The notes: generated by a model not told the origin, from the sequence alone. Shown: positions 13,727-30,564, counted from the first letter of the stretch. The stretch: DNA of 64,000 nt from an uncultured Verrucomicrobiae bacterium (GCA_963749035.1 CAVVKW010000004.1:396717-460716), one strand, 5' to 3'. A program made the numbers and translations.

Positions 13727-13979
13727 CGCCTCGGATCTCGCTCATGATCTCGTCGGTGCTGCGGCCTCCCGCACGATCTTTCCAGATGCCCCGCACCGCA
13801 AGTAGCCGGTCTCGCATTTCCGCAGCGTTGCGTGGTGGCTCGATCGTTCCCTCAGCGAGGCCACGTGCCAGCAGATCCCGGGCTTCGGCCTCCATCGAGC
13901 GTTGGTTACGCGCAGCCTGTTCGCGAAGCGCCTGCTTTACCGCCACGTCGAGATTGCGAATGGTCAACGTGGTGCTCAT
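13719..13979 (-). CDS. vapB: VapB/FitA-like ribbon-helix-helix antitoxin
   Basis: Internal Met MSTTLTIRNLDVAVKQALREQAARNQRSMEAEARDLLARGL... 8-nt overlap with vapC. Confidence 0.75.
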   Translation of the reverse strand: MSTTLTIRNLDVAVKQALREQAARNQRSMEAEARDLLARGLAEGTIEPPRNAAEMRDRLLAVRGIWKDRAGGRSTDEIMSEIRGDD

Positions 13980-13986
13980 GGCTTTG

Positions 13987-14005
13987 AATGCTAGCATTGC
14001 ATGCA
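13987..14005. promoter_or_regulatory. Overlapping palindromes just upstream of vapB; candidate VapBC operator
   Basis: AATGCTAGCATT (13987-13998, perfect 12-bp palindrome) overlapping TGCATGCA (13998-14005), 8 bp upstream of the vapB ATG. Confidence 0.45.
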
Positions 14006-14090
14006 TTGCAGTCAATCGGGGATGGAAGGTGCCTGACCGATCCAAGACGGTCGGGCTCCACTTAGAACCGTATCAGATTAAGCTGTCGGA

Positions 14091-14164: not shown

Positions 14165-14198
14165 GTTGCTCTCCGGCCTGCATGGGTTGAAAATGCTC

Positions 14199-14463
14199 TA
14201 GGGAATTAGAGTGAGTGGCTGACCCTTTAGCGTCGCCGGCGGGCGGGCCGGAGCCTTTCGCACGGCGATGGCAACCTTTCTTGGGTCACTTCCTTTCAGC
14301 ACTCGTGAGTCGGATTTGGTTCGCGCCGCGTCACGGAGAGCCTGGATGACGAAGGTTTCTGCGAGGTCTCCGACCCGATTCTGGTCTTGATCACTCAATC
14401 GGTAATCGCGATTGGGAGGTCGAACGACGCTTTGCGCAGTCAAGAATGATCGACTGACCCCGG
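14199..14463 (-). pseudogene. Copy B of the local repeat family; carries a gene remnant (transposase-like C-terminal fragment?)
   Basis: Minus-strand reading GVSRSFLTAQSVVRPPNRDYRLSDQDQNRVGDLAETFVIQALRDAARTKSDSRVLKGSDPRKVAIAVR.. has no credible N-terminus. Both ends match copy A. Confidence 0.4.
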
Positions 14464-14548
14464 TTTCCGGTTTAACACGAGAATGATCGACTGACCCCGG
14501 TTTAACACGTCACAGTCAAGAATGATCGACTGACCCCGGTTTAACACG
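14444..14548. repeat. Three tandem copies (37-39 bp period) of GAATGATCGACTGACCCCGGTTTAACACG
   Basis: Unit starts at 14444, 14481 and 14520. The first copy has an internal CCGGTTT duplication. Confidence 0.8.
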
Positions 14549-14849
14549 TCATCAGCCGCTGATTGGCAAGATTCCCCGCCGTGACGCTGACACTCAGTCG
14601 TTCGATGGATTGGTCCGCCGCCGGAACCAGGCTTGCCCGATGAGACTCGCTGCACTAAAGTCCTCACGCGCGATGAAAATCGCCCGATTCTTCCCGGAAC
14701 CCTCTTTCTGAAAGGGGGTTCGAGACCAAGCCATCTCCGACTACGAAATTCGCGGATGGATGCCAGGAACGCCTTGGTCAACCCCATGGGTGGTCGATCA
14801 ACCGCGTGCGCGCTCCAGCCTGATCGCAGCAATTCAACCTTCCAAAGAT

Positions 14850-16088
14850 ATGTCTGAATCCAAGCACATCTCCCGACGCCGCCAAGTTTCGACCGGTCCG
14901 TTGATCCTGGTCGCTCTCATCAAACTTTCCCTGATCACCAACCTGATCGGGAATCTTGCGACCTCCCCCGATGATTCGAAGGACGTTCGAGAATCCTTCA
15001 CCCCGCAGCTCACGGCAGAGCACCCACTTGGGCTGATCGATTCATCGGCACGGCGGGAGATTTCTCATTGGGAGGCCGACGCCCCGCTGAAATCGGAGAA
15101 TCTGGTTCTCATTCACGCCCACGCCTCCCCCGAAGACATCAGCCCGGCCATGCCCGCACTCGAGCTGCACCTTCACGAAAGTCTCCCGGACACCGCAGAA
15201 GCCAGACTGCAGGTCAGCTACACGCGAGGAAATGGCGACCGCCCTTCCCGCGTAACCGAGCAAGACAGCGTACAAATTCCCCGCGACGGCGGCTTCCGGT
15301 CGATCCAGGGGCGCACCTGGGAGATTCACCAAGACCCGGACTTCCTGGCAGAAATTGCGGATCACGGGTTCTTCGGCGGTGACGCCGTCCTGACGTTCAG
15401 GTCCAGCGAATCGGGTGCCGAGGAAACGATCCGTTTCCGGATCGGGGGCGAGAATCCCCGCGACGAGATCTGCAAGGAGTTCATCCGCGAATTCCCGGAA
15501 ACCTCCTCCGGCCAAAAGCTCGATTTCATGAATGCGATCGCCAAGCACGAGTCGAAAGCCAAAAATCGTGACCGAGTTTACTACAACCAGTTCCTGCACC
15601 TGGACACCCACCCGAACGACGGAGGATTGCCAGCTTGGAACAACGACGGTGGGCTGACTCCCGGCGGCTACGGAGTCTTTCAGGTGACCGGCACCGCGGT
15701 TGATGCCCAGGAGAACATCGGCCGCGATGAGATCTGGAATTGGCAGAGCAACGTCCAAGCCGCCTTCCGAATCATGACGCATCAGATCAAGGGCTCGCTC
15801 GCCAAACGCTACTTCACGAAAATCAAAGAAGACGTCGAGGACGCCGAGATTCTTTTCGATCTCTGTCCCCCGCCCAAAATCCGCACCGGTGGGGAGATAT
15901 TCACCGCGAAGCAAGCCGTCTGGATCACCGCCTACAACGGCTGGGGAGGCCCGATCAAAAACCGGTTCATCTTCTCGGAGGACTTCCCCTGCGGACTTGG
16001 TCCCGACAAGCGCTGGAACTGGAAGCCCCCCGTGAAACCCAGTGGAAAAACCTACCTCGAACTCGTCGCCGAAGAGATGGAAAACTGA
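14850..16088 (+). CDS. Membrane-anchored protein with a C-terminal lysozyme-like / lytic-transglycosylase-like domain
   Basis: The ATG at 14850 gives MSESKHISRRRQVSTGPLILVALIKLSLITNLIG (TM). The C-terminus has AIAKHESKAKN (E-S), GGYGVFQVT and WNWQSNVQAAFRIM, which resemble SLT motifs I-III. Confidence 0.5.
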   Translation: MSESKHISRRRQVSTGPLILVALIKLSLITNLIGNLATSPDDSKDVRESFTPQLTAEHPLGLIDSSARREISHWEADAPLKSENLVLIHAHASPEDISPAMPALELHLHESLPDTAEARLQVSYTRGNGDRPSRVTEQDSVQIPRDGGFRSIQGRTWEIHQDPDFLAEIADHGFFGGDAVLTFRSSESGAEETIRFRIGGENPRDEICKEFIREFPETSSGQKLDFMNAIAKHESKAKNRDRVYYNQFLHLDTHPNDGGLPAWNNDGGLTPGGYGVFQVTGTAVDAQENIGRDEIWNWQSNVQAAFRIMTHQIKGSLAKRYFTKIKEDVEDAEILFDLCPPPKIRTGGEIFTAKQAVWITAYNGWGGPIKNRFIFSEDFPCGLGPDKRWNWKPPVKPSGKTYLELVAEEMEN

Positions 16089-16272: not shown

Positions 16273-19200
16273 TTACGCCCCTTGATATTTCTTGAAGTTC
16301 TCCGCCTGCTCGAAGATCTCCTTGTAAACCTCATCGTGGGTGATCGGCGGGTAGCCGTTCTCGGCGAGGAGAATGATGAGGTCGACTTTCAGCTCGGCCT
16401 TGATGTCGGCGCGTTGGCTCCAGTCGGTGTATTTGGCTTTGTCGTCGACGACTTCCTTCACCGCCTTGGCTAGCTTGATCAGCTTGTCCTCGGAGTAGGC
16501 GAAGTCGTATTTGACCGAGATGGCTTTGAGGATGTCATAAAAGGACTTTTCTTCGAAATCGATCCCCATCTCGCCGAAGGATTCCTTCTCCCGTTTCAAG
16601 GCGTGGTAGAGGTCGACAATTTCTCCGGCGAAGTCGTCCAGCACGTTGCTGACGAGGACATCCTGCTCGTCGCGCTCGTTGTATTTGCTCACCAACGCCT
16701 GGAACTGCTTCGTAAAATCAACGCCTTTCATCTTGTTGACCTTCTGGAAGTCCTCAATGGCACGTTTCAGCAACTGCTGCAGGAGCTTAATCTTGGTATT
16801 AGGCAGTTTGATCCTCTCAATCTTGGCGAGGTAGTCATCGCCGAAGATGTCGATCTCCGTCGCACCATTCTCGCCGAGTTTGAAAATTTCCTCGATCCCG
16901 TCACTCTGCAGAGCTGCTGAGATCATCTCCCGCACCTTGGCGTTCATCTGGGCGCTGTCGGGGGCTTCGCCCTTGGTCAGCTTGGCGACGATGGAGCGCA
17001 CGGCGAGGTAGAAGTGAATGTGGTCGCGCTCCTGCTGGGTGAAGGCATCGCTGCCGCTGCAGATGTCGTAGGCGGCTTTCAGGCGCTTCACGAGGAACAT
17101 GACCCGCTTCTCGATCTTCTCGGTGAGCTGCACGAACTCCGCGGCCAAGTTCAGGCAGTGCAGTTGCTCGACGGGCGATCCGCTGAAGTAGGGCGTGGTG
17201 TCGAACTGATGGAAAATCCGCGCCAGCAGGTCGAGGTGATCCCGCACCACGATGATGGACGCCTCGATCTCTTCGATGCTGCCACTGTCCGCCTTGGAGT
17301 AGTGTGCCAGCGCTAGGTTCATCTGCTTCTTGATGCCGATGTAGTCGACGACGAGGCCCTTCTTCTTGTTCTCAAACTTCCGGTTCACCCGCGAGATCGT
17401 CTGGATCAGGTTGTGGCGCTGGACCGGCTTGTCGATGTAGATGGTGTCGAGGAAGGGCACGTCAAAGCCCGTCAGCCACATGTCCACCACAATGGCGATT
17501 TTGAAGTTGGATTCGGCCTTCTTGAACTGGGTGTCGAACTTCTTGCGCTCGTCCTTGTTGCCGAGCAGGTCGTAGAGCGCTTTCTCGTCGTCCTTGCCCC
17601 GCGTCATCACCATCTTGAGGCGCTCCATGGGGAGGATTTCTTTCTTCTGCTGGTCGCTCAGCTCCACGCCATCGGCGCAGACCCGCACCTCGGCCCACGC
17701 GGGGCGCAGCTTGATGACTTCCTGGTAAAAGGCGTAGGCGATCTGGCGACTGCTGCTGACAAAGATAGCCTTACCCGCCACGGTGGAGCCTTCCTCGACG
17801 CGCTTCTCGTAGTGCTCTACGAAATCCGCCGCCAGAGCCTCGATGCGTTGTGGATCACCGAGGATCGCGCCCATGTTGGCCATGGTTTTCTTGCTGTCTT
17901 CGATCGCGTAGTAGCTCGCTCCGGCGTCGGCGCATTTGTCGTAGTATTTCTCGATCTCCTCCAGCTTGCTGTTGTCGAGGATGACCTTGGCGGCGCGGCC
18001 TTCGTAAACGATGGGCACGGTGATCTCGTCGGCGACCGACTCGGTCATGGTGTAGCTGTCCACCACCTCGCCGAAGACATCCAGCGTCGCATCGATGGGC
18101 GTGCCAGTGAAGCCCACGTAGGTCGCGTTCGGCAGCGAGTCGTGCAGGTATTTGGCGAAGCCAAAGGTCCGCTTCACCCCGTCTTCGGTGATCCGGAGCT
18201 TCTGGTCCAGATTCACCTGGCTGCGGTGCGCCTCGTCCGAGATACAGATCACGTTGGTGCGATCAGTCAGCCGTTCGGTGTCCTCGGTGAACTTGTGAAT
18301 GGTGGTGAGAAAGACCCCGCCGCTGTTGCGTCCTTTCAAGAGCTCCCGCAGGTGATTGCGGCTCTCCACGCTGATGACCGACTCATCGCCGATGTAGCCC
18401 TTGCCATTGGTGAACAAGCCCGAGAGCTGATCATCCAGATCGGTGCGGTCGGTGATCAGGACCAGGGTCGGGCTGGAGAGAGCCACGCTCTTCATCAGCA
18501 GCCGGGCTAGGAAGAGCATGGTGTAGCTTTTGCCGCAGCCCGTCGCCCCAAAGTAGGTGCCGCCCTTGCCATCGCCTTCCGGCTTCCGATGCTGGAGGAT
18601 GTTCCGAGACAGCTTGGTCGCCGCGTAGTATTGCGGGTAGCGGCAGAGGATCTTCTCCTCCTTGCGCGAGGTGTCGGGCAGATAGACAAAGTTTCGGATG
18701 ACATCCAACAGCCGAGTCTGGTGAAACAGCCCCTTGACCATGGTATCGAGAGATTTAATCCCTTCCGCCTCCTTGAGCTCGCTGCCGTCTGTCTTCCGCC
18801 AGGCATAGAAAAATTCATAGGGAGCGAAGAACGATCCGGATTTTGTGTTCGCCCCATCTGAGATCACACAAACCGCGTTGTATTTGAACAGTTCCGGAAT
18901 ATCCCGCTTGTAACGAGTCGTGAGCTGCACGTAAGCCTCGTGGATTCTGATCTCCTCGCGGATTGCGCTCTTGAATTCAAACACCACCAGGGGCAGGCCG
19001 TTGATGTAGAGGATGCCGTCCGGGACGCGCTTTTCGTAGCCGACGATCTCCAACTGACTGACGATCTTAAAAATGTTGCCGCTCGCTCCGTAGGTCGCCG
19101 CGTCCTCCGCCACGATGGAGGGCACCTCGCCGGGCTCCGGTTCGCGAAAGGCAGCCAGCTCCGAGTAATCGATCAGCTGAATGTAGAGATCCTTCTGGGT

Positions 19201-19491
19201 GTGGTCTTCCCGCTTCAGGAGGAAGCCGTCCGAGACCAGCTTCATGATCGCCTTATTGCTCTCGTAGAGATCCGCCGCCGTGTAGGCTTCGAGCTGCTTG
19301 ATGACCGCCTCGATTTCCTGCGGCGTGATGTGGTCGGCGGAGTATTGCTTGGCGAGGAAGGAGCGGAGGTCGGCTTTGATGAGAACTTCCTGCGGCTGAC
19401 GCTCAATCGCCTCGCCCAACACGTGCGGATATCCCTCGGCTCCGAGAAGCTTGATGATCGCAGATTCGAGTTGGGCTTCGGTGAATTTCAT
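16273..19491 (-). CDS. hsdR: Type I restriction enzyme R subunit
   Basis: Start at MKFTEAQLES (the ATG overlaps the abiEii stop, ATGA). PD-ExK nuclease motif PDGILYINGLPLVVFEFKS, Walker A GATGCGKSYTM, DEAH box ICISDEAHRSQ, long helical C-terminus. Confidence 0.9.
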   Translation of the reverse strand: MKFTEAQLESAIIKLLGAEGYPHVLGEAIERQPQEVLIKADLRSFLAKQYSADHITPQEIEAVIKQLEAYTAADLYESNKAIMKLVSDGFLLKREDHTQKDLYIQLIDYSELAAFREPEPGEVPSIVAEDAATYGASGNIFKIVSQLEIVGYEKRVPDGILYINGLPLVVFEFKSAIREEIRIHEAYVQLTTRYKRDIPELFKYNAVCVISDGANTKSGSFFAPYEFFYAWRKTDGSELKEAEGIKSLDTMVKGLFHQTRLLDVIRNFVYLPDTSRKEEKILCRYPQYYAATKLSRNILQHRKPEGDGKGGTYFGATGCGKSYTMLFLARLLMKSVALSSPTLVLITDRTDLDDQLSGLFTNGKGYIGDESVISVESRNHLRELLKGRNSGGVFLTTIHKFTEDTERLTDRTNVICISDEAHRSQVNLDQKLRITEDGVKRTFGFAKYLHDSLPNATYVGFTGTPIDATLDVFGEVVDSYTMTESVADEITVPIVYEGRAAKVILDNSKLEEIEKYYDKCADAGASYYAIEDSKKTMANMGAILGDPQRIEALAADFVEHYEKRVEEGSTVAGKAIFVSSSRQIAYAFYQEVIKLRPAWAEVRVCADGVELSDQQKKEILPMERLKMVMTRGKDDEKALYDLLGNKDERKKFDTQFKKAESNFKIAIVVDMWLTGFDVPFLDTIYIDKPVQRHNLIQTISRVNRKFENKKKGLVVDYIGIKKQMNLALAHYSKADSGSIEEIEASIIVVRDHLDLLARIFHQFDTTPYFSGSPVEQLHCLNLAAEFVQLTEKIEKRVMFLVKRLKAAYDICSGSDAFTQQERDHIHFYLAVRSIVAKLTKGEAPDSAQMNAKVREMISAALQSDGIEEIFKLGENGATEIDIFGDDYLAKIERIKLPNTKIKLLQQLLKRAIEDFQKVNKMKGVDFTKQFQALVSKYNERDEQDVLVSNVLDDFAGEIVDLYHALKREKESFGEMGIDFEEKSFYDILKAISVKYDFAYSEDKLIKLAKAVKEVVDDKAKYTDWSQRADIKAELKVDLIILLAENGYPPITHDEVYKEIFEQAENFKKYQGA

Positions 19492-20387
19492 GTTGTCGCG
19501 GGGAGCCGTCGCCAATTTTCCGAGGGAACCCAGCGATGATCGGTGACGTCTCCCTTGATCACGGGTGAGAGGAACGCTGAGAGATCGCTGACGACTTCAG
19601 CGAGCGGCGTGGGATTGAGCTTTCCTTTGCGCAGGAAGGCATTCCACTGTAGAAGCTTTTGCTGATTCGTGCTGAACCTCTCGGTGAAAGCCACGGGAGG
19701 TGCTTTGGGAATATTTGCCCCCCGCCGTTCGAAGGTATTGATGACGGCTTCTGTGAGATCGTTCCCGTCGAATTCAGTGTGAGACTGAAGCCAGTGCAGG
19801 TCGAAGAAATCCTTCATCCGGCTGTTGTCGATCCCAAGAGAAACAGCCGCCTCCAGCTTCTCCGCGACTACCGTTTCGGGAGGATACACAAGCAGGCTGG
19901 CACTGGGGAAATCGAGAAGCTCGTGCCATTCCTTTTCCTCCGCAGCCGGCGTAATGGCATCGCCGAATCCCACATCGATCTGAATACCGAGGCGGGCTCC
20001 CGCGAGTCCAACGCCCACCCTGGCCCGGATCCCTCCGTATTCCATCTCTTCACGAATCGGTGCCACGGCAACCTCTTCCCACTCGAGACCATCGTCGGGA
20101 TCGATATCCATCTGAAGCAGCCCGGTGAAGATCGTGTGAATCGCCTCCTCGGTGGGTTCCCCGTATCCGAGAAGGTCCAGATCACGGGTGGGCCGATGTT
20201 CCTCCACCCCCCAAATCCGGAACAGTTGCGCCCCTTTCAACACAAAACGTTCCCGATACTCGCTCTGCGCGAGGCGATAGAGAAAGCGCCCGGTCGCATA
20301 CTGCTCCAGCAAGGCACTCAAAGGCTCTCCCTCTGCACGGGAAAGGTTGAGAAGCCTGGCGCGAACGGAAGCAGCGACGTTTTTCAT
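19488..20387 (-). CDS. abiEii: AbiEii/AbiGii-family nucleotidyltransferase toxin (type IV TA)
   Basis: 299 aa. MKNVAASVRARLLNLSRAEG.., NTase motif RPTRDLDLLGY. Confidence 0.85.
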   Translation of the reverse strand: MKNVAASVRARLLNLSRAEGEPLSALLEQYATGRFLYRLAQSEYRERFVLKGAQLFRIWGVEEHRPTRDLDLLGYGEPTEEAIHTIFTGLLQMDIDPDDGLEWEEVAVAPIREEMEYGGIRARVGVGLAGARLGIQIDVGFGDAITPAAEEKEWHELLDFPSASLLVYPPETVVAEKLEAAVSLGIDNSRMKDFFDLHWLQSHTEFDGNDLTEAVINTFERRGANIPKAPPVAFTERFSTNQQKLLQWNAFLRKGKLNPTPLAEVVSDLSAFLSPVIKGDVTDHRWVPSENWRRLPATT

Positions 20388-20989
20388 ATCATCGCCTCCA
20401 GATAGGGTCTCATCATTTTGCCGACCCGCAGAAGCCGGGCCATTTCGCTGATCTCGCTGAGCTTTGCTTTCCGTTCGTTCAGAGTCTCACGAAGCGCCTC
20501 CACGCAGACGTCGATTCCCAGCTTGTTGCGGTGTTTGAAGCAATCCGCCACCGTCCGTGCCGGGGTCGTGACGGCGACACTGGTGCCGCCGAGCGGGTGG
20601 TGTTCGACCCCCTCTGCTTCGAGCGCTTTCACCCGGGTTCGGATCACCCGGATCGGGGGCCAGTCGATCTTCGGAACCCGCGTCTGCGCCGGGAGTTGAA
20701 TCCAAATCTCATGAGGCGATTGGGTGCCAATCTCGTGAAAACGGAGCGCACTGATCAGCACGACCACAGCCCGCGGGGCGCTCTTGGTGATCTGGATCAG
20801 ATCGTGATGCTCACTGATGGCACTCTCCGGATGTTCATAAATCCCGCGCCGCACCCGAACCAGCGTTCCCTTTTCAACCAGTCGGGAAATACTCCGGTCG
20901 GAAACGCCGGCATCCAGAAGCTGCCGCGTCGTCAGCACCTCATTGGCAGAGGCGAGCGCGGAAAGCTTTTTCTGGAGCGTGGACGTCAT
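20384..20989 (-). CDS. abiEi: AbiEi-family antitoxin / transcriptional regulator
   Basis: 201 aa. N-terminal winged HTH (VLTTRQLLDAGVSDRSISRLVEKGTLVRVRRGIY). 4-nt overlap with abiEii. Confidence 0.8.
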   Translation of the reverse strand: MTSTLQKKLSALASANEVLTTRQLLDAGVSDRSISRLVEKGTLVRVRRGIYEHPESAISEHHDLIQITKSAPRAVVVLISALRFHEIGTQSPHEIWIQLPAQTRVPKIDWPPIRVIRTRVKALEAEGVEHHPLGGTSVAVTTPARTVADCFKHRNKLGIDVCVEALRETLNERKAKLSEISEMARLLRVGKMMRPYLEAMI

Positions 20990-20994
20990 TACGA

Positions 20995-21040
20995 TGTCGG
21001 AAATCGTTATACATTCTCATACATTGTACGACAATTGGCA
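20995..21040 (-). promoter_or_regulatory. Candidate abiE promoter/operator with repeated ATACATT heptamers
   Basis: cgttATACATTctcATACATTgtacgacaattg lies 10-45 bp upstream of the abiEi ATG. An AT-rich patch in an otherwise GC-rich spacer. Confidence 0.3.
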
Positions 21041-21102
21041 ACAGTAAGCCCGACGTCTTTGGTGGGCGCAAAGCGCGCCGAACCCATACTGGCAGCGGAC
21101 GA

Positions 21103-21471
21103 CACTTCGCCAGGCTCCGGCTCGCGAAAGGCAGCCAGCTCCGATTAATCGATCAACTGGATGTAGAGATCCTTCTGGGTGTGGTCCTCGCGCTTGAGGA
21201 GGAAGCCATCCGAGACCAGCTTCATGATCGCCTTGTTGCTCTCGTAGAGATCGGCGGCGGAGTAGGCTTCGAGCCGCTTGATGACCGCCGCGATTTCCTG
21301 CGGCGTGATGTGGTCGGCGGCATATTGCTTGGCGAGGAAGGCCCGCAGGTCGGCTTTGATGAGAACTTCTTGCGATTGGCGCTCAATCGCCTCGCCCAAC
21401 ACGTGCGGGTAGCCCTCGGCTCCGAGGAGCTCGATGATGGCTGATTCGAGTTGGGCTCCGGAGAATTTCAT
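21103..21471 (-). pseudogene. Duplicated 5' fragment of hsdR (first 108 codons, then an in-frame TAA)
   Basis: MKFSGAQLESAIIELLGAEGYPHVLGEAIERQSQ..LYIQLID* matches HsdR residues 1-108 at 99/108 positions. Homology continues about 14 codons past the stop and ends near 21103. Confidence 0.85.
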
Positions 21472-22340
21472 TTTTTCGGATCAACGGAGACTTCTCCGAG
21501 TTTTCGGTCATGCTTCCGTCCAGACTCGAACGCAGTGAAGCCGGGGCGCGGAGTCGTGTTTCGACTGCTGTCATAGTAAACGCTAAGAACGCCTGTTAGG
21601 AGAAACTGAAGAGCCATGTGGTTCTCTTCATCATCGTGCTCTAGCAAAACGAATTCGGCCTTGTCACATTTTCCATTGGGCCTCCGCTTGAAGATGCTCC
21701 AGTCATTGAAGCAGCCCAAGTAACCTACTAAATCCTCAAATCCACTCTGATCTCCGTATACTTCTTGGAGCTTTTCAAAAATCCAATCCTTCGTGTCCTT
21801 TTCCTTCTTTTCGATAAGCGAGGTCATCGAGATCAGGCCCAAATATGGCCGTCTTACCGATTGGCCTCCGCTATCGAAATGAACGCACAGCTCTGAAACA
21901 CGCTTCAATGCCGAGCACTCCTTTACAATATCACCGTCCCGCAGATTCTTCTTTATGGAGAAAACCGCTACCACGCCCTCTGGAGGAACTATCGCGTTTT
22001 TCTCGAAGCGTTGATAGACGGGGAATTTCGATGATTCATATACGATGATATCGAGCTGGCTGGAATGCGCGTCGTTTTCATCCTTTCGAGACCTTCCATT
22101 CAGCCCAGTTTTGACTGCTGGGCGAAGAATGAAACCAGTTAGGATTTCGAGCTCCTTAGGAAGGAACTTTCTCAGGTAAGCAGTAATCAATGACTCTACA
22201 TATCTTCCATCTTCACCTGAGTGAGCGGACCCGGATGTCTCCTTACTTGGAATCAAGATCTGAAATTGACGGTATGTGGCAAGAAGAGCCTCTATCTCAT
22301 TTGAAAAATATTCTCTTATTCGTTTTCCATCCATAGTCAT
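21468..22340 (-). CDS. Hypothetical PD-(D/E)xK-like (DUF6602-style) putative nuclease, partner of the RT
   Basis: 290 aa. GEDGRYVESLITAYLRKFLPKE .. SSQLDIIVYES .. PPEGVVAVFSIKKNL fits the restriction-endonuclease-like pattern (E .. D .. S-x-K variant). The stop overlaps the hsdR-fragment ATG (ATGA). Lower GC than the flanks. Confidence 0.55.
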   Translation of the reverse strand: MTMDGKRIREYFSNEIEALLATYRQFQILIPSKETSGSAHSGEDGRYVESLITAYLRKFLPKELEILTGFILRPAVKTGLNGRSRKDENDAHSSQLDIIVYESSKFPVYQRFEKNAIVPPEGVVAVFSIKKNLRDGDIVKECSALKRVSELCVHFDSGGQSVRRPYLGLISMTSLIEKKEKDTKDWIFEKLQEVYGDQSGFEDLVGYLGCFNDWSIFKRRPNGKCDKAEFVLLEHDDEENHMALQFLLTGVLSVYYDSSRNTTPRPGFTAFESGRKHDRKLGEVSVDPKK

Positions 22341-22408
22341 TTTTCGAATCAGAATTTGGTGAATTTGAAATTCTGTTTTTTTAGGTCAGCCAGAAAAGCT
22401 TGGCCGTT

Positions 22409-23914
22409 TCAGCGCAAGTCCGCGTCACTCCAGATTGTGTATATCAGGAGCCACTGGGCATCCTGATCTTGTTTCTCTTGGCTCTTTAGATTGTTCGCTC
22501 GTGTTCGTAGCCACTTCTTGACTTTGGTAAGACTCTTTCGGGTGGCGTATTCCCAGAGGAGGACATTACTCAGGCAGTCGTCGATCTGAATGATTGCCTT
22601 AAGTTCGTCTTCCGTGAGGTTGATTTCAAAGTCGTGTTCGATCGCGAAGTAGAGAGCGTGGGCGACCGAGTCTGGCTGAATCTTTTCAATCCCAATTTTG
22701 ATTAACTCGTTTCCAAGATCTTCGATCTGGTCATCCGTTTCGGGGTTTCGATGCTTCACGAACGCGCACTCCTCCATGATGGGAGCGAGATACGGATAGG
22801 CGAGGCAGAGGTTGGTGCCCTCAGCGGTGAACAGGCGCTTCGCTCGATCATTCAACCGCTTTGGCACCATCTTGATTGCATAGTTCAAGACAGCCGAAGT
22901 GCCATGTTGCCTGCTCAATTCGAGGGCGAGATCCAAGAATGAGCGAACAGTCGAAAAGCGAATTTCTTCTTCGGGAAACGTGAATCGATTGAGCTCGTTC
23001 ACCCAGCTAGCAGATACCGGCTGGGGAAGCTCAACGATCTGTGTTTTCTTTTCGTTGAGGTAGAGCTCATATTCGCGGAGCGCCAAATTCAGGTCTCGAA
23101 CAAACGTTTCTGCCTCCTGGTGGCTCGTTGCGTAGAACGTGTAATCGTCGATGTGGCGAGTGAGGCGGGTATAGTCCTTTTTCAGCAGAGTTTCATCAAT
23201 CCTCGTGAGGATGATTTCAGAAATCACGTTTGAAGAATGAGGGCCAATCGCTAAGCCATTGGTTTGATTGTCGGAGAGAATCTGACACGACCTATCGAGT
23301 AGATTTCCCTCCAGGAGGAGGTCGCGATTTCTCTTCGCATTGGCTTTCCCATGAATCGCCCAAGGAATTGAATGGGTGTAGATGCTCGGAAAGCACTTGG
23401 AAATATCAGCCTTAACCAAATGGGTTGCCCCGGTTTGATAGCCGATTTCATCTTCCTCCACCTCGAAGCGTTCCAAGCCTTTGTAGTTCATCTTGAAGAC
23501 GCGGTCTTTGCTCGTTTGCCGAACGAAGATGCGGCTGATCGGCTTTGAGGGCTTGGCGCAATGAGTTTTGATTTTCTGCCAGCACCTCTTGATTGCAAGG
23601 CAGTGCGCTAAGTAACTTTCCGGGTGGGGTATCGCTAAATGGCGAGGAATATTGATGTCTCGCAACGACTGGTATCGGATCTGTGAATGAATGACTTTCT
23701 CAAAGTGTTCTTTGAGCTGATTCGAGTCAGTTTCTGTTTCGATCTTTGCCAGAGCTGCATTGACGTGAGCTGACAGGCCTTCCGAGGTGAAGCACGGCGG
23801 GATCTTCTCAGCGAACAGACCGAATTCGGTGAGTCCTTCAAAGACTCCCTCTGCGCTTAAGTCGCGCCCGGTCGTTTGGCGAAGAATCGCCGAAAAGTTC
23901 AAGGTGGGACTCAT
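22409..23914 (-). CDS. Abi/UG-type (defence-associated) reverse transcriptase with a helical C-terminal domain
   Basis: 501 aa. RT motifs: INIPRHLAIPHPESY (1/2), LVKADISKCFPSIYTHSI (A), NGLAIGPHSSNVISEIIL (B), LTRHIDDYTFYATS (C, xxDD), YELYLNEKKTQI (D). About 200 aa of helical C-terminal region. No En/X/maturase features. The ATG overlaps the hsdS stop (ATGA). Confidence 0.8.
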   Translation of the reverse strand: MSPTLNFSAILRQTTGRDLSAEGVFEGLTEFGLFAEKIPPCFTSEGLSAHVNAALAKIETETDSNQLKEHFEKVIHSQIRYQSLRDINIPRHLAIPHPESYLAHCLAIKRCWQKIKTHCAKPSKPISRIFVRQTSKDRVFKMNYKGLERFEVEEDEIGYQTGATHLVKADISKCFPSIYTHSIPWAIHGKANAKRNRDLLLEGNLLDRSCQILSDNQTNGLAIGPHSSNVISEIILTRIDETLLKKDYTRLTRHIDDYTFYATSHQEAETFVRDLNLALREYELYLNEKKTQIVELPQPVSASWVNELNRFTFPEEEIRFSTVRSFLDLALELSRQHGTSAVLNYAIKMVPKRLNDRAKRLFTAEGTNLCLAYPYLAPIMEECAFVKHRNPETDDQIEDLGNELIKIGIEKIQPDSVAHALYFAIEHDFEINLTEDELKAIIQIDDCLSNVLLWEYATRKSLTKVKKWLRTRANNLKSQEKQDQDAQWLLIYTIWSDADLR

Positions 23915-25323
23915 CCGGCCACATCCTCAACTAGTTCGCTTGTGTCGGAAAGGCGGATTTCCTTGGAGATAAGTTTCGGGAGGAGGGTGTCGCGGAGCTT
24001 TGTGAGGGTTTCTGTAGAGAGTCGGTTCTCGTAACCTCGCGAATAGATTGAGGAAACAGCTCTATTGAATCGGTCAAGCAGCGTCGCGGTCGGCTTGAAG
24101 ACCATGAGTCGCTTCATGTCACCGGCTGTGAAATGCCCGAGCCCCGTGGTTTGTTTGTCCCTGGCAAGCTCCGCGAAGGTGGAGCGGAGATACTTGAGCT
24201 GATAGTAGACGAAGTAGCGTTCGGACTCGTCGTGGAGACGGACGTTGAAGATGTGCTGATTAAGATAGCCGGGGCCGTTTGTCCAAATGAACGTGTCGAT
24301 GGAGGTGTCGGGGTTGCCTGACCAAGAAAGCAGGATGTCACCATCTTCGACTCTGTATTTGTCGCCTTTGTTGTTCGTAGTAAACTTGGTTTGGCCTGTG
24401 ATTCCCGCTTTTACCTCCGCAATTTTAATGACTGGTAAAGCAGCCTCAGCGTCAGAGAAGTCTGCTCCCTTGTAAGCAGCTCCGTTGACGAAATCCGCGA
24501 TGTCGTAGAGAGGCTGAGTTTCCCAGCCTTCCGGGATCGGGCCAAGTTCATCGTAGTATTCAAACGCGGCAGGGAAGAGGGATTGGGGATCAGACAGGGT
24601 TGGGTGGTCGACGGAACCCTGTTGGGTGGTGCCGTTGGCGAGGGCTTTCTTTCGGACTTCGGCGCGGGAGGCGAGTTCGTCGGGGATGGGATTGCCGGCG
24701 GCGAGGGCATTGTCGATCACCGGGTCAAGGTCCACAAACCAGCTTTTGAAGAGCGCCTGCGCCATCCCTTCCAGCGTCGCATTCATCCGCCGATTCAACT
24801 CAATCTTGTCATCCAAGGTGCCCAAGATGTGAGCGATCGCTTTCTGCTCGGGGAGGGGTGGGAGGATGAATGGGACTGCGGAAAGAATGCTCGTATTCAG
24901 GTTAGGCATCGTAGCGCCGATAGCGTGCCGAACGATCCACTCCCGACACTGAGCGCCTCCCAATTGGAATGATGCATACTCCGGATCTACCAATTCTTTG
25001 TCGAATCGAATGCGTAAGCAGCCCGTCCCGCAAAGCCACCCGTCTTCGGCTTCTCTAACCAATGCACGTCGCTCAACATCACCTCGTCTGCTGTAAACGA
25101 CATCTCCAGGTTCGACTCGGTACTTTGAAAGTCGCTCTGCGTCTTCCTCACTGATTCGCGCGATGCTCTCGGTTGTGATCCGGTTGTCGGCGATATTGAC
25201 GGGCATTATCGACGGGATGCCTTCCTCGACATAATCCGACTTATGGAGCTGGCTTCCAAAAGGACCAGTTTGGACGCTTAGAGAAGCATCTGCGAGGGTC
25301 ACCTCTTGCCGCTCACTTCCCAT
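23911..25323 (-). CDS. hsdS: Type I restriction enzyme specificity subunit
   Basis: 470 aa. Two target-recognition halves separated by conserved helical spacers (..LPPLPEQKAIAHILGTLDDKIELNRRMN.. and ..LRDTLLPKLISKEI..). Confidence 0.88.
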   Translation of the reverse strand: MGSERQEVTLADASLSVQTGPFGSQLHKSDYVEEGIPSIMPVNIADNRITTESIARISEEDAERLSKYRVEPGDVVYSRRGDVERRALVREAEDGWLCGTGCLRIRFDKELVDPEYASFQLGGAQCREWIVRHAIGATMPNLNTSILSAVPFILPPLPEQKAIAHILGTLDDKIELNRRMNATLEGMAQALFKSWFVDLDPVIDNALAAGNPIPDELASRAEVRKKALANGTTQQGSVDHPTLSDPQSLFPAAFEYYDELGPIPEGWETQPLYDIADFVNGAAYKGADFSDAEAALPVIKIAEVKAGITGQTKFTTNNKGDKYRVEDGDILLSWSGNPDTSIDTFIWTNGPGYLNQHIFNVRLHDESERYFVYYQLKYLRSTFAELARDKQTTGLGHFTAGDMKRLMVFKPTATLLDRFNRAVSSIYSRGYENRLSTETLTKLRDTLLPKLISKEIRLSDTSELVEDVAG

Positions 25324-25432
25324 ACCCCATGCCCTCCAGGTTTTTCCGAATCACTTCATCCAGCTTTGCCGACTCCTCCATTTGCGCGATTAGCGTCTGG
25401 CTCAGCTCGGTCATTTTAGTCTCAAAGGAAAT
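25313..25432 (-). pseudogene. Duplicated 3' end of hsdM (last ~38 codons) preserved immediately upstream of hsdS
   Basis: SFETKMTELSQTLIAQMEESAKLDEVIRKNLEGMGYGK* versus the intact HsdM C-terminus PFETKMTELSQTLYGQMEESAKLDEVIRKNLEGLGYGK* (34/38). Keeps the ATGGGAAGTGA stop/start junction with hsdS. Confidence 0.85.
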
Positions 25433-25440
25433 CGATCGGT

Positions 25441-26127
25441 TCATGGTTTTGGCCACTTGTTCAGAATTTGATCAATCCACGGCTGCAATCCGGCCTGTCG
25501 GATCGCAACGAATCGGTCGAGGACCGTCGTGAAGTCTTTCAGCTTTGGAGACATCCATTCAATCACATCGAGAATACTTTGATGGCGTTGATCCAGGTCT
25601 TGCCAGTGAGGGATCCGCTCATGATGGAAAACCCGGTTGCGCAGATCGCGAATGTCCTTCCAGCGTCGGTCCAGTTTGTTTTGCACTTGCTCAGTACTTA
25701 GGGCGTGGGGAAATGCCCTCCTTGATAGGAATGCTCCAATACCAGTCCGGGCATGGGCGTTGTTGAAGAATCCAGTCCAGAATCCGAAGTTGAGCTCAGC
25801 GACAATTCTTCCCGGGGTAAGTGGCTTCGTGAGTCTGCTCAAGGTGCGCTTGGCTTCGTCCAGCTTGTCCTGTTGCCAATAGGTGAGTCGTGCTTGGGGC
25901 GAGTCGTACCAGGCATCGGTTCCACACCGTGCAGACAGCTCACGATGCACCGCGTTTCGGAGGGCGATTTCCGAGAATTGGAGTGTAGGGTAGAGGGCCC
26001 CGCTGAGGGCCATATTCAGCAAATAGCGTCCAAGAGTAGTTTTTTCATCCGCCCCATCTTGGCGATAGGCGTCAATCCGCTCTGTATGCAGATTCCCTTC
26101 GACTTCCTTGAAAAAATCGGGATTCAC
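25441..26127 (-). CDS. Abi_2 (AbiD/AbiF-like) HEPN-domain abortive-infection protein
   Basis: 228 aa. EIALRNAVHREL and the HEPN R-x4-H motif in IRDLRNRVFHHERI. Architecture typical of Abi-like proteins inserted in Type I R-M loci. Confidence 0.7.
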   Translation of the reverse strand: MNPDFFKEVEGNLHTERIDAYRQDGADEKTTLGRYLLNMALSGALYPTLQFSEIALRNAVHRELSARCGTDAWYDSPQARLTYWQQDKLDEAKRTLSRLTKPLTPGRIVAELNFGFWTGFFNNAHARTGIGAFLSRRAFPHALSTEQVQNKLDRRWKDIRDLRNRVFHHERIPHWQDLDQRHQSILDVIEWMSPKLKDFTTVLDRFVAIRQAGLQPWIDQILNKWPKP

Positions 26128-26277
26128 AAGCTACTCCTTTCCATGGCTGCTATACGGAATCGTATGCAAAAAGTTTGACGGATAGCCCCTCTGATAGCAA
26201 AGTGTCTCCGTTGACCCCGGGATCCCTTCCTTCGCCGCTCGCGGCTTAGAGGCCCCGGGGTTTCTTTTTGGACGGAA

Positions 26278-27759
26278 TCACTTCCCATACCCCAAGCCCT
26301 CCAAGTTTTTCCGAATCACTTCATCCAGCTTCGCGGATTCCTCCATCTGCCCGTAGAGCGTCTGGCTCAGCTCGGTCATCTTGGTTTCGAACGGAATTCC
26401 GTCGTCCTCCAACGTCGCCGCGCCCACATAGCGTCCGGGAGTGAGCACGAAGTCGTGCTTGCGGATGTCTTCGAGGGTGGCGGATTTGCAGTAGCCTGCC
26501 ACGTCGGCATAGGCCTCGGTGGAGTTTTCAGTGTTCAGTTTTGAGTTTTCAGTTGGAGTTTGGCTTCGCCAGTTGTGGTAAGTCCTTGCGATGTGCTCGA
26601 TATCTTCTGCTGAGAGTTCCTTCTGCGTCCGGCTGATCATGGCGCCGATCTTGCGGGCATCGATGAAGAGGGTCTCGCCTTCGCGGTTGCGATAGTCGCG
26701 TTCGTTGTTGGCCTTTTTGTTTTTGGTCAGGAACCAGAGGCAGACGGGGATCTGGGTGGTGTAGAAGAGTTGGCCGGGCAGGGCGATCATGCAGTCGACG
26801 AGGTCGTTCTCGACGAGTTTTTGGCGGATCTCGCCTTCGCCCTTGGTGTTGGTGGACATGGAGCCGTTGGCGAGGACGAAGCCGGCGACCCCGTTTTCCG
26901 AGAGTTTGCTCACCATGTGGAGAATCCAGGCGTAGTTGGCATTGCCGGTGGGCGGGGTGTCGTAGCCGTTCCAGCGTCCGTCGTGGACGAGTTCGTCGGG
27001 GCCGCGCCAGTCCTTCAGGTTGAAGGGGGGATTGGCCATGATGTAGTCGGCCTTGAGGTCGGGGTGTTGATCCTTGAAGAAAGTGTCGGCGGGGACTTCG
27101 CCGAGGTTGGCGGAGAGCCCGCGCACGGCGAGGTTCATCTTGGCCAGCTTGTAGGTGGTGGCGGCAGACTCCTGCCCGTAGACGGAGATGTCCTTCTTGC
27201 TGCCGTGGTGGCTTTCGACAAACTTGATCGACTGGACGAACATGCCGCCGGAGCCGCAGCAGGGGTCGTAGATCTTGCCTTTGTAGGGCTCGATCATTTC
27301 GGCAATGAGATTGACGACGCACTTCGGGGTGTAGAACTCGCCCCCGAGCTTGCCCTCGGAGGCAGCGAATTTGCCGAGGAAGTATTCATAGACCCGGCCG
27401 ACGGTGTCCTCCTCCTTGTCCTCGACGGTGTCGATGTTGTTGATGGCATCGATGAGGGCGGAGAGCTTGCTGCCATCGAGCCCGAGGCGGGAGAAGTAGT
27501 TGTCGGGCAAGGCGCCCTTGAGCGAGGCATTACTCGCCTCCACGTCGGTGAGGGCGGAGTCGATCTTGATGGCGATGTCGCCCTGCTTGGCATGCTGCTG
27601 GATGTAGGACCAGCGGGAGGTCTCCGGCAGGTAGAAGACATTCTGCATGGTGTAGAACTCGACCATGTCGAGGTAGTCGTCCTTGCCCTCGGCCACGAGC
27701 TCGGCCCGGCGCTCCTCGAAGGATTTGGTGGATTTCTTGATTGGTGTCGGGTTTGACAT
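26278..27759 (-). CDS. hsdM: Type I restriction enzyme methyltransferase subunit
   Basis: Start at MSNPTPIKKST (ATG 27759), 493 aa. AdoMet motif IYDPCCGSGGMF, catalytic IMANPPFN. The upstream extension in the ORF track is a repeat-derived reading. Confidence 0.9.
   Translation of the reverse strand: MSNPTPIKKSTKSFEERRAELVAEGKDDYLDMVEFYTMQNVFYLPETSRWSYIQQHAKQGDIAIKIDSALTDVEASNASLKGALPDNYFSRLGLDGSKLSALIDAINNIDTVEDKEEDTVGRVYEYFLGKFAASEGKLGGEFYTPKCVVNLIAEMIEPYKGKIYDPCCGSGGMFVQSIKFVESHHGSKKDISVYGQESAATTYKLAKMNLAVRGLSANLGEVPADTFFKDQHPDLKADYIMANPPFNLKDWRGPDELVHDGRWNGYDTPPTGNANYAWILHMVSKLSENGVAGFVLANGSMSTNTKGEGEIRQKLVENDLVDCMIALPGQLFYTTQIPVCLWFLTKNKKANNERDYRNREGETLFIDARKIGAMISRTQKELSAEDIEHIARTYHNWRSQTPTENSKLNTENSTEAYADVAGYCKSATLEDIRKHDFVLTPGRYVGAATLEDDGIPFETKMTELSQTLYGQMEESAKLDEVIRKNLEGLGYGK
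26522..26563. repeat. Heptamer-periodic tract (6 units) inside hsdM
   Basis: gagtttt cagtgtt cagtttt gagtttt cagttgg agtttgg. Encodes ..TENSKLNTENSTE... Confidence 0.8.
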
Positions 27760-27845
27760 GTCGGGATATAAAATTTGGTGAAATGGGCCGCGGGATCGCC
27801 GCCGCAGTGCATCCCCGTCTGGCGCCGTTCGGGGTAGCTTGCTAA

Positions 27846-27919
27846 CCACAGATTGCGCAGATGGGCTCGGATAAAGAACTTCAGAAAAACATCTGTGTTC
27901 ATCTGTGAAATCAGTGGTT
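27846..27919. repeat. Inverted, diverged copy of the CACGGATG-type sub-repeat (CACAGATG) upstream of hsdM
   Basis: The minus strand reads aaccactgatttcacagatgaacacagatg, parallel to aaccacggatgacacggattttcacggatg at 30457-30487. Confidence 0.6.
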
Positions 27920-28236
27920 GAACTCCTTGGTGCTTGAAAATTTTGGCGAGGGCCTTGATCAGCATTTTGGCACCCGGATCGGCAGAGGCGTGAGTCGATG
28001 GGGGAGGCCAGCGCATGCAAAACTTGGAGGGTGCCTAATCTGATGCGGAAAGTGAAGTTGATCAGGTGGCGCACGCCTGCTGGGTGTCAGTTTGGGGGCT
28101 GCGGTCGGTCATTGCGGGGTGGAGTTGGGCAGTTCGGGACTCCTGCTTTTGGCGTTGCCGGGGAAGACCTGCGGCGTCGCGGCTCACCCCACGGTGTGGA
28201 TTTGACTCCGTTGGCTGGAAAAGCGATTGCTGGGGG

Positions 28237-28797
28237 GTGCAGGTTTTGGCGCGGTGGTTTGACAGTTTGGCGTTGGCGTCCGGGCGTTCCGGGGCTGTTG
28301 GCTTAGCGGGGCTGCTGGTGGCGGTCGGGCTGACGGGGTGCGCGTTGCCGCCGGTCGAGTTGTCGACGCAGGAGCCGTTGGCGGTGGACATCAACATGCG
28401 GATCGACGTTTACCAATACGACGAGGGCGAGAAGCCCAAGCCAATCGCGACGCCGACTCCGGTGCCGAGTGGGGACGTGGCGACGCGGCAGGAGGATCGG
28501 GCGGCGGACGTGCAGGTCTTCAAGAATAGTCGGCTGGTCGGGGAGGGCGCGGATGGGTTGCTCGCGATCCTCGCGGAGACGCAGGGGGATTACGGGGATT
28601 TTGTCCGGGACACGGTGCGGGCGGAGAACGCGGACCGGATGACGCTGATGAAGTCCATCGCCGAAAAGGAACGGAAGTCGCTGACGGAAGTGCAGAAAAA
28701 TCAGGCTGAGCTCTGGCGCAATCGCTCGTTTTCGGGAGAATACATTCAGGTGCCCGGTGCGGGTGGCGATTTGACGTGGAAGCAGAAGGAAGAATGA
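28237..28797 (+). CDS. YdbL-like (DUF1318) periplasmic lipoprotein
   Basis: Lipobox LLVAVGLTGC. The C-terminal half (..LVGEGADGLLAIL.., ..ENADRMTLMKSIAEKE..EVQKNQAELWRN..) is YdbL-like. The start codon is uncertain (GTG 28237 or TTG 28246). Confidence 0.5.
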   Translation: MQVLARWFDSLALASGRSGAVGLAGLLVAVGLTGCALPPVELSTQEPLAVDINMRIDVYQYDEGEKPKPIATPTPVPSGDVATRQEDRAADVQVFKNSRLVGEGADGLLAILAETQGDYGDFVRDTVRAENADRMTLMKSIAEKERKSLTEVQKNQAELWRNRSFSGEYIQVPGAGGDLTWKQKEE

Positions 28798-30368
28798 GTT
28801 TGGTTCGGATTGCCCGCAAAAATTTGTGGAGAGAGTGGCTGGCTGTCTCGCTGCGCTCGGCTTCGGATTTCGGATTTCGGATTGTTGTGGTTTTGGTGGC
28901 TTTGGGTGGGGTCGTGCACGCGGGGGAGGACGGGGTGGCCTTGGAGCTGACTTACTCGAAGGCGATTCAGATGGCGCTGGCGAAGAACTTCGACATTCAG
29001 ATCGAAAAATTTAATCCGGTGATCGCCCGGGCGGAGACGGTGAGCGAGGAGGGGCGGTTCGATCCGCGGGTGGAGGTCGAGTATTCGTACGAGGAGAGTC
29101 GACGGGATCTGACGTCTTTGGATCCGACGCTGGATTCCGGGTCGCCGGAGCGGAGTGGGTTGGCGAGATTTGCGCGGGAGAGTGGGACGGAGGGACGCGC
29201 GGGGGTCGCGGGGGTGACGCCGCTGGGGACGCGGTATGATTTTGGTGCGTCGGTGGATCGGGATACGGATACGCGGAGCGCGATCGATCAGCGTTACAAC
29301 ACGTTCGTGGGCGGGACGATCACGCAGCCGCTGCTGCGGGGGTTCGGACCGGACGTGAATCTGGCGCAGATCCGGATCGCGCGGGCGGATCAGGCGATTT
29401 CGGCCTGGGCACTGCGGGATCGGATCATCGACGTGGTGACGGACACGGCGCTGATCTACAACGACCTGTTTTTTCAGATTCAAAATTTGGCGGTGCAGAT
29501 TCGGTCGAGGGATTTGGCGGAGCGGACGCTGCGGGACAACGAGCGGCGGGCGGAGATCGGCGTGATGTCGCCGCTGGACGTGGTGCAGGCGCAGGCGGAC
29601 GTGGCGGCCCGAGAGGAAAGGGTGCTGGTGGCGGAGCGGGCGGTGGCGGACAACCAGAATTTTCTGAAACAGCTCGTGACGGACGAGATCGCGGACGTCT
29701 TGCGGACGCCGGTGCGGATTGCTCCGCCGCCGCTGGATCGGGACGTGGCGGTGGATCTGGAGACGGATCTCGAGCGGGCGTTTGAGATTCGGCCGGATTA
29801 CCGTCAGGCCCTCCTCGACCTACAGAAGCGGAACATCAACGTGGTCTTCAACCGGAATCAGGCGCTGCCGCGGCTGGATCTGGTGGGGAGTCTGGGGCTG
29901 AACGGGATCGAGACGGAGGTCGGCGAGAGTGTGTCGCAATTAACGGTGCCGAGCAATCTGGCGGGGAGTCTGGGGGCGATCTTCAGTCTGCCGATTCCGA
30001 ACCGGGAGGCGCGGGGTCAGTTGCAGGTGTCGAAGCTGGAGGTGGCGCGGGCGTTGGTCGGGCTTAAGCAGGCGGAGCAGAGTATCTTCGTGGAGGCGGA
30101 CAACGCGGCGGGGCAGATCGACACGACGCGGCAGCGGATCCAGACGACACGGGCGGCGCGGGTGTTCGCGGAGCGGACGCTGGAAGCGGCGCAGGCGCGG
30201 TTGGCGTCGGGGACGGCGACGACGTTCGAGGTGCTGCAATTTCAGCGGGATCTCGCGGAGGCGGAGGTGGCGGAAATGCGGGCGCTGACGGATCATCAGA
30301 AGGCGATCGCGGAATACGCGCGGACGGTCGGGACGACGCTGGAGGCGAATTACATTTCGCTGGAATAG
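28794..30368 (+). CDS. TolC-family outer-membrane efflux protein
   Basis: About 524 aa. LTYSKAIQMALAKNFDIQIEK.. with two repeated OEP halves. The ATG overlaps the preceding stop (ATGA). Confidence 0.8.
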   Translation: MSLVRIARKNLWREWLAVSLRSASDFGFRIVVVLVALGGVVHAGEDGVALELTYSKAIQMALAKNFDIQIEKFNPVIARAETVSEEGRFDPRVEVEYSYEESRRDLTSLDPTLDSGSPERSGLARFARESGTEGRAGVAGVTPLGTRYDFGASVDRDTDTRSAIDQRYNTFVGGTITQPLLRGFGPDVNLAQIRIARADQAISAWALRDRIIDVVTDTALIYNDLFFQIQNLAVQIRSRDLAERTLRDNERRAEIGVMSPLDVVQAQADVAAREERVLVAERAVADNQNFLKQLVTDEIADVLRTPVRIAPPPLDRDVAVDLETDLERAFEIRPDYRQALLDLQKRNINVVFNRNQALPRLDLVGSLGLNGIETEVGESVSQLTVPSNLAGSLGAIFSLPIPNREARGQLQVSKLEVARALVGLKQAEQSIFVEADNAAGQIDTTRQRIQTTRAARVFAERTLEAAQARLASGTATTFEVLQFQRDLAEAEVAEMRALTDHQKAIAEYARTVGTTLEANYISLE

Positions 30369-30376
30369 TGGGGGAT

Positions 30377-30489: not shown

Positions 30490-30531
30490 TGGGGCCGCGA
30501 ATGGGGTGATTCGGCCGGTCAGCTCATGACT

Positions 30532-30559: not shown

Positions 30560-30564
30560 GACTC

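Follow-up and report, generated by a model that had tools for sequence, protein, structure and literature searches.

How several defence genes of different families came to be nested in one Type I restriction-modification (R-M) operon, and whether they depend on the R-M enzyme that hosts them, is the question raised by a locus in a 64,000-nucleotide stretch of DNA from an uncultured Verrucomicrobiae bacterium (GCA_963749035.1, CAVVKW010000004.1:396717-460716; the whole stretch is called the window below). Here, hsdM, hsdS and hsdR are separated by four predicted defence modules: an Abi_2/HEPN gene between hsdM and hsdS, and a DRT4 reverse transcriptase (RT), a DUF6602 nuclease and an AbiEi/AbiEii toxin-antitoxin (TA) pair between hsdS and hsdR. 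The locus is an actively recombining member of the known class of defence genes embedded in Type I R-M operons, and we consider it likely that the hsdM-hsdS-hsdR operon has been the landing pad of four defence modules, each autonomous, and that the locus is now a partly eroded mosaic. Embedding in R-M operons is established, but the route by which cargo enters and the survival of the host operon have been described as unexplored; this locus and its relatives suggest a testable model, in which the ends of hsdM and hsdR serve as recombination anchors, a scar is left and the start-stop junction is rebuilt.

Gene content, junctions and cargo

Gene identities were assigned by Pfam and PADLOC profile scans of the open reading frames (ORFs) listed in Table 1, where coordinates are those of the whole stretch. 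The Type I R-M system has hsdM, hsdS and hsdR all present. The REase_I match of hsdR spans model positions 3-1023 of 1029, and its Pfam domains are HSDR_N, SWI2_SNF2, ResIII, T1R_D3-like and T1RH-like_C; hsdS is intact, with a full-length Specificity_I match. Between hsdM and hsdR, the window has 6.8 kb of extra DNA with five cargo ORFs. The scans bore out, for every gene, the content and minus-strand order given in a preliminary description of the locus, each of the five junctions quoted there matches the sequence letter for letter, and its view that several different defence functions are nested, on one strand, in a Type I R-M locus is supported. Its count of three cargo modules becomes four, the RT and the DUF6602 gene being separate.

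Table 1. Features of the hsd locus, in the direction of transcription.
Feature	Coordinates	Strand	Size or identity	Profile match or basis
hsdM	27759-26278	minus	493 aa	Pfam N6_Mtase E=8e-105
Abi_2/HEPN	26127-25441	minus	228 aa	PADLOC PD-T4-5 E=2.3e-14
hsdM 3' remnant	25432-25313	minus	120 nt, 87% identical to 26397-26278	
hsdS	25323-23911	minus	470 aa, two target-recognition domains	PADLOC Specificity_I E=1e-103; Pfam Methylase_S
DRT4/UG15 reverse transcriptase	23914-22409	minus	501 aa	PADLOC Drt4 E=4e-150
DUF6602 PD-(D/E)xK / NucC-like nuclease	22340-21468	minus	290 aa	Pfam DUF6602 67.6 bits
hsdR 5' remnant	21478-21097	minus	382 nt, 90% identical to 19498-19117	
sigma70-like promoter candidate	21041-21013	minus		TTGCCA-17-GAGAAT, consensus match only
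abiEi antitoxin/transcriptional regulator	20989-20384	minus	201 aa	Pfam AbiEi_4 E=2e-12; PADLOC AbiEi E=4e-70
abiEii nucleotidyltransferase toxin	20387-19488	minus	299 aa	Pfam AbiEii E=1e-43; PADLOC E=4e-100
hsdR	19491-16273	minus	1072 aa, full length	PADLOC REase_I 1271 bits

The stop codon of the hsdM remnant overlaps the hsdS start in ATGGGAAGTGA, and ATGA overlaps are found at four junctions (hsdS/RT, DUF6602/hsdR remnant, abiEi/abiEii and abiEii/hsdR). Gaps separate hsdM from Abi_2 (150 nt), Abi_2 from hsdS (117 nt), RT from DUF6602 (68 nt now, 8 nt before a nonsense mutation in the RT gene) and the hsdR remnant from abiEi (155 nt). In a consensus scan of 12.7 kb, the sole sigma70-like match lay in the 155-nt spacer just upstream of abiEi, where no AbiEi operator repeats were established. 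The same kind of scan placed no terminator-like site in the intergenic gaps; every match was intragenic, and such matches occurred at chance frequency (15 observed, 14.3 expected). Because the gaps carry no terminator-like sites, co-transcription of the genes is plausible, as is a promoter of its own for AbiE. The modules would share transcription from an hsdM promoter, probably with the addition of an AbiE promoter, and we do not propose that their regulation depends on the R-M enzyme. Of the earlier suggestion that all functions depend on shared transcription and translational coupling, the shared transcription is compatible with these gaps, whereas a single coupled chain is contradicted by the four non-overlapping gaps of 68-155 nt and by the promoter-like site before abiEi. 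Among Rfam families, nothing but tRNA-Phe was detected as a structured RNA in the region 10-30 kb of the window; to our knowledge, DRT4 requires no non-coding RNA.

The Abi_2 gene, a single-gene module, starts with GTG behind the Shine-Dalgarno sequence AAAGGAG. Its Pfam Abi_2 match falls just under the cut-off (E=8.7e-5; 23.3 bits against 25.6), its PADLOC PD-T4-5 match covers model positions 16-208 of 309, and its translation contains the HEPN-type motif RNRVFHH; the protein would act as a HEPN RNase in abortive infection. At the other end of the cargo, abiEi, for a wHTH antitoxin, and abiEii, for a DUF1814 nucleotidyltransferase, form a bicistron in that order, in which the AbiEii nucleotidyltransferase toxin would be restrained by AbiEi.

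The RT matches the Drt4 model over its full length, its Y144 is aligned to Tyr125, the priming residue of the solved DRT4, and the catalytic IDDY is kept; it would carry out protein-primed, template-independent synthesis of single-stranded DNA. By contrast with all close homologues, which have 522-523 aa, it has 501 aa and an incomplete C-terminal (alpha-repeat) region. A nonsense codon (GGA>TGA at 22411-22409) removes the final 21 residues, and the older frame is still readable to a TGA at 22351-22349, 8 nt ahead of the DUF6602 start. The premature stop is common to the window, a sister metagenome-assembled genome (MAG) and related locus L095, and its effect on activity is uncertain. In the E. 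coli DRT4 structure, the last 34 residues (507-540) are disordered (PMC12783706). The DUF6602 protein matches PADLOC PD_DExK (E=6e-19) and NucC-like (E=1.5e-10) models, and its Pfam score is above the cut-off of 27 bits. The residues conserved in at least 95% of 120 homologues are all kept, with the single exception of Y109 in place of the family's F; among the residues retained are D97, E121, S128 and K130, and the protein would act as a PD-(D/E)xK nuclease.

The preliminary description had taken the RT and the nuclease as one RT module. In favor of such a two-gene RT-nuclease system, the genes are neighbours that once were spaced by 8 nt, both are low in guanine-plus-cytosine (GC) content (46.5-50%, where the hsd and AbiE genes have 57-60%), and three assemblies contain the pair, namely the window, L094 and L095. 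However, the nearest RT homologues occur without DUF6602, in L096 and L098 (a cluster of at least 90% identity), L089 (81%) and L091 (73%). Of the DUF6602 homologues whose context is known, the nearest (79%, L081) lies behind an OLD-family ATPase, and DUF6602 is solitary in the gut contigs L083-L088. Both families have, moreover, been described as single-gene defences: DRT4 (PMC12783706) and 'Damona', which has a DUF6602 domain (10.1101/2024.07.02.601686). Since each gene is found without the other in the genomic contexts of relatives, an obligate pair was rejected, and we regard a single RT-nuclease system as very unlikely.

Cargo of related hsd loci

To place the locus among its relatives, 80 genome loci encoding HsdR relatives (67-87% identity; the nearest from Verrucomicrobia and Planctomycetota) were surveyed, and cargo was counted in the 65 that have hsdM upstream and hsdR in range. 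Extra DNA, up to 8.4 kb, lies between hsdM and hsdR in 51 of these 65. The numbers of loci with 0, 1, 2, 3, 4, 5, 6 and 7 cargo ORFs were 14, 10, 13, 9, 9, 5, 4 and 1, respectively, so that 28 carry at least three, 19 at least four and 10 at least five. The 175 cargo ORFs fall into 111 clusters, mostly of defence-type families, including AAA_21/AAA_15 (AriA/OLD/PtuA-like), RhuM, Schlafen (SLFN), AbiEii, YhcG, Fic, SIR2, GmrSD and HerA, and the PADLOC families PDC-S02, S05 and S23 recur among the related loci.

Homologues of the window's Abi_2, DRT4 and DUF6602 were absent from the 80 hsdR-related genome loci and were found solely by protein searches of metagenome assemblies. DRT4 lies in hsdM-hsdS-DRT4-hsdR (L091), in hsdM-hsdS-Abi_C-DRT4-hsdR (L098), in hsdM-KilA-N-hsdS-DRT4-hsdR' (162 aa)-DUF3800-SLFN-hsdR (L096), and in hsdM-hsdS-DRT4 (81%)-hsdR'-AbiEi (77%)-AbiEii (70%)-hsdR (L089), hsdR' denoting a remnant. 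The DUF6602 homologue of L081 is part of hsdM-hsdS-Abi_C-OLD-DUF6602 (79%)-hsdR'-DUF6088-AbiEii-hsdR. A 73% identical Abi_2 homologue lies between hsdM and hsdS in L101 and L102, the order in L101 being hsdM-Abi_2 (73%)-89 aa-hsdS-NB-ARC-RhuM-PDDEXK_3-hsdR. Each module of the window thus recurs with other partners, and cargo stacking is ordinary for this hsd operon family. The preliminary description had called three embedded modules in one operon unusual, a view at odds with the 51 of 65 related loci that carry cargo, the 19 with at least four ORFs, and the comparable stacks of L081, L096 and L101; the comparison with related loci that it had proposed, in order to see which cassettes vary, reveals partner combinations that vary freely. 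The stack gives no sign of a new defence mechanism.

Functional cross-talk, which the preliminary description had raised, has a classic case in PrrC, an anticodon nuclease that is embedded in hsdMSR and kept latent under the EcoprrI R-M enzyme. On this precedent, the embedded effectors would be held by an EcoprrI-like R-M enzyme and fire, as PrrC does, when Ocr, ArdA or Stp inhibits it, forming a guard or back-up circuit, an idea discussed by Payne et al. (10.1101/2024.01.29.577857). The shared strand and ATGA overlaps, and the repeated occurrence of the DRT4 clade between hsdS and hsdR, are compatible with such a circuit. However, Pfam and PADLOC scans of the nine ORFs found no PrrC/RloC-type ABC-ATPase and anticodon nuclease domain; for DRT4, DUF6602/Damona and AbiE, activity or occurrence in the absence of hsd genes has been reported or found; and a conserved N-terminal segment of HsdM is deleted here with the cargo retained. 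Nothing points to cross-talk, every module occurring in other combinations or outside hsd loci, and we therefore consider a guard circuit highly improbable.

Remnants of hsd genes and a proposed route of entry

The two hsd remnants suggest how the four autonomous modules could have entered the operon. The ATG of the hsdR 5' remnant overlaps the DUF6602 stop, and its frame is closed by TAC>TAA at codon 109. Over the first 375 nt, it differs from the live gene at 36 sites, distributed 8/3/25 over codon positions one to three, with 23 synonymous and 11 non-synonymous codons; the hsdM remnant differs from its live gene at 16 sites (4/2/10). Because the differences concentrate at third codon positions, the remnant and full-length copies are best read as having diverged as functional genes in different lineages. 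Their sequences point to joining by recombination between diverged alleles, and not to local duplication followed by decay. As the two hsdR copies are each other's nearest relatives, neither can be assigned as donor or recipient. The hsdM 3' remnant retains an in-frame ATG, which opens a 33-codon mini-ORF ending in the ATGGGAAGTGA overlap with hsdS and could still provide translational coupling for hsdS. Similar mini-ORFs were annotated by gene callers in L096 (50 aa) and L101 (89 aa).

Scars similar to those in the window occur in more than 12 related loci. Seven loci (L001, L003, L004, L021, L043, L045 and L070) have remnants of the hsdR 5' end, 42-158 nt long, upstream of their last cargo, and these begin at the hsdR start codon or at most 7 nt into it; hsdR 5' remnants are likewise present in L017, L081, L089 and L096. 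Upstream of hsdS, the loci L012, L046 and L052 have remnants of the hsdM 3' end that stop at, or a few nt from, the hsdM stop codon, two of these three loci having two copies each, and L096 probably has an analogous one. Between DRT4 and abiEi, L089 contains two separate hsdR-derived fragments (10591-10644 and 11124-11436), which suggests that one junction underwent insertion or deletion at least twice in succession. The termini of hsdS can be left as scars too, because in the Rubritalea locus L081 the stretch from Abi_C to the OLD-family gene contains a remnant of the hsdS 3' end (L081:6074-6152), which matches the 3' end of the window's hsdS at 84% identity over 58 nt.

Remnant length appears to be specific to the clade of the adjacent cassette: it is about 85 nt with the AbiE clade of L003 and L004, about 105-117 nt, together with a shared spacer, with the DUF6088-AbiEii clade (L017, L070 and L081), and 312-382 nt in the window and L089. 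Upstream cargo varies among the loci compared, and, among relatives, the similarities of AbiEii and of HsdR are incongruent. The spacer before the DUF6088-type antitoxin includes a conserved inverted repeat, TCACAAAAAG..N..CTTGTGA (L017:7840-7960 and L081:9060-9175), of which L004:8300-8345 holds an apparent relic; this element may be an operator or promoter of the DUF6088-type TA clade.

On the basis of the scars, we propose that the locus was built up in steps, through recombination with alleles that had diverged within the same hsd family, and that the homology came from the conserved genes hsdM and hsdR. Entry would combine an hsd-anchored recombination with a non-homologous join inside the terminus of the resident gene; alternatively, a circle with one hsd terminus might integrate in Campbell fashion. 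Insertion beside hsdS or hsdR would leave a truncated hsdM 3' or hsdR 5' copy and would at the same time install a fresh ATGGGAAGTGA or ATGA junction, so that the downstream hsd gene keeps its translation start.

A stronger version, which we hold to be possible but doubtful, is that the duplicated hsd termini are portable homology arms that make the embedded defence genes recombinase-free cassettes. RecA-type recombination between the two hsdR 5' copies (382 nt, 90%) would excise a circle carrying one hsd terminus and AbiE, and the hsdM 3' copies (120 nt, 87%) could likewise excise Abi_2. The circle would re-enter any related hsd operon by a single crossover, and integration would regenerate ATGA or ATGGGAAGTGA, with hsdR or hsdS still expressed. 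If true, this would account for the clade-specific remnant lengths, the differing upstream cargo and the incongruence of AbiEii with HsdR; the first and last of these keep portable cassettes in consideration, without proving them.

State of the host operon and comparison with known systems

The window's hsdM has a strain-specific, in-frame deletion of 111 nt, which removes 37 aa from HsdM's N-terminal domain. The deletion junction lies within the 8-nt repeat TTCGAGGA (27720-27713), as a clean loss between two TTCGAGGA copies, and the flanks are 100% identical in a DNA alignment to the sister MAG (Chthoniobacterales, GCA_049793755.1), where the locus recurs among the same genes (fpg, OEP, DUF1318, hsdM, Abi_2). 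The HsdM of this MAG (P0242, 530 aa) differs by one substitution and the 37-aa gap, and all 11 of the 11 relatives checked retain the segment, which is the best-conserved part of the N-terminal domain and aligns to PDB entries 3KHK (Methanosarcina) and 7VRU. Unlike in the relatives, the sister MAG and the PDB homologues, this domain is not intact in the window, where the Pfam HsdM_N match begins only at model position 36. Because HsdR requires the M2S core, a lesion in HsdM bears on restriction as well as on methylation. In M.EcoKI, the HsdM N-terminal domain makes the HsdM-HsdM bridge, by which the clamp is closed over DNA (PMC2647291). The deletion has probably cost or impaired methylation, and restriction is probably lost or impaired with it, so that the host R-M system would be disabled; no second hsd copy able to complement HsdM was found in the window. 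The lesion is a very recent single event, because the sister MAG is without it. A comparison of the deletion genome with its near-identical, intact sister could show whether embedded modules work or misfire after R-M loss.

The preliminary description had allowed that inactive hsd genes and decay might reduce the locus to a decaying mosaic; in the full form of this reading, the whole would be non-functional debris and no module would be active. Decay is partly borne out by the 37-aa deletion in HsdM, the premature stop of the RT, the two hsd remnants and the TAA within the hsdR remnant. On the other hand, all the remaining ORFs, hsdR included, are full length against family models, DUF6602 keeps its family-invariant residues, and the RT keeps its priming Tyr and IDDY. 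In addition, a second assembly, in which the HsdM lesion is absent, has the Abi_2, DUF6602, AbiEi and AbiEii proteins in identical form. We consider complete decay improbable, and favor a landing pad with autonomous modules and partial erosion.

Several observations weigh against this favored interpretation. The 21 residues lost from the RT align with the ordered part (about 485-506) of E. coli DRT4. The low GC content and 8-nt ancestral spacing common to DRT4 and DUF6602 mean that the two may have arrived together. In a comparison by binned nucleotide identity, aimed at a chimeric hsdR, the hsdR remnant and the full copy are nearest to each other (90.4%, against at most 86.4% to 12 relatives). 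The mechanism of recombination is inferred from the scars alone. Finally, HsdM might tolerate its deletion, or the deletion might be a variant of the assembly or of the population.

The flank of the operon is rich in TA genes (10643-14045), including a HipA-family kinase toxin (12125-10821, minus) and a pair of FitA-like RHH antitoxin and PIN toxin (14045-13256, minus). A tRNA-Phe gene lies at 10643-10716; an integrative island anchored there was considered and rejected, as the window contains no second copy of the tRNA 3' end (att repeat) and no adjoining integrase was found. A 442-aa ORF (14760-16088, plus) convergent with hsdR has no Pfam match, and small minus-strand ORFs at 14198-14832 gave no matches. 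From the 5' part of hsdM onwards (26500-34000), GC content climbs to 62-69% and GC skew is strongly positive (0.2-0.4), while the skew is near zero across the cargo region.

Among known systems, E. coli DRT type 4 (UG15; PMC12783706) resembles the window's RT in the full-length profile match and the aligned priming Tyr and IDDY; by contrast, the window's RT is without the last 21 residues, and its clade lies characteristically between hsdS and hsdR. With the 'Damona' defence, the window's protein shares the DUF6602 Pfam domain, a likeness known at the domain level only. The AbiE pair resembles type IV TA systems in its AbiEi_4 and AbiEii domains, its 4-nt overlap and the promoter-like site before abiEi; it differs in that the abiEii stop overlaps the hsdR start and an hsdR 5' scar precedes the pair. 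As in EcoprrI-PrrC, a Type I operon has an effector gene placed between its hsdS and hsdR, but here there is no sign of physical or regulatory coupling, and the modules are also found apart from hsd genes.

The embedding of a further defence system or TA pair between hsdS and hsdR is also known from the Type I R-M locus of V. cholerae VPI-2, which carries TgvAB (PMC11411939), and from the RRDM island of enteropathogenic E. coli, where DarTG2 lies at a site called a 'potential recombination hotspot' (PMC12255303); these loci have one embedded system each, whereas the window has four stacked at two junctions. For operons of Type I R-M, BREX, DISARM and Hma, Payne et al. 2024 (10.1101/2024.01.29.577857) described embedded defence genes under the term 'guilt-by-embedding', and, as here, known or candidate defence cargo on the same strand is nested between hsd genes. 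PD-T4-5 was embedded once in that survey, while the Abi_2/PD-T4-5-like clade is found here repeatedly at the hsdM-hsdS junction. Because Payne et al. make no mention of remnants, truncation or recombination, the scars of hsd termini in the window and its relatives are a modest new observation.

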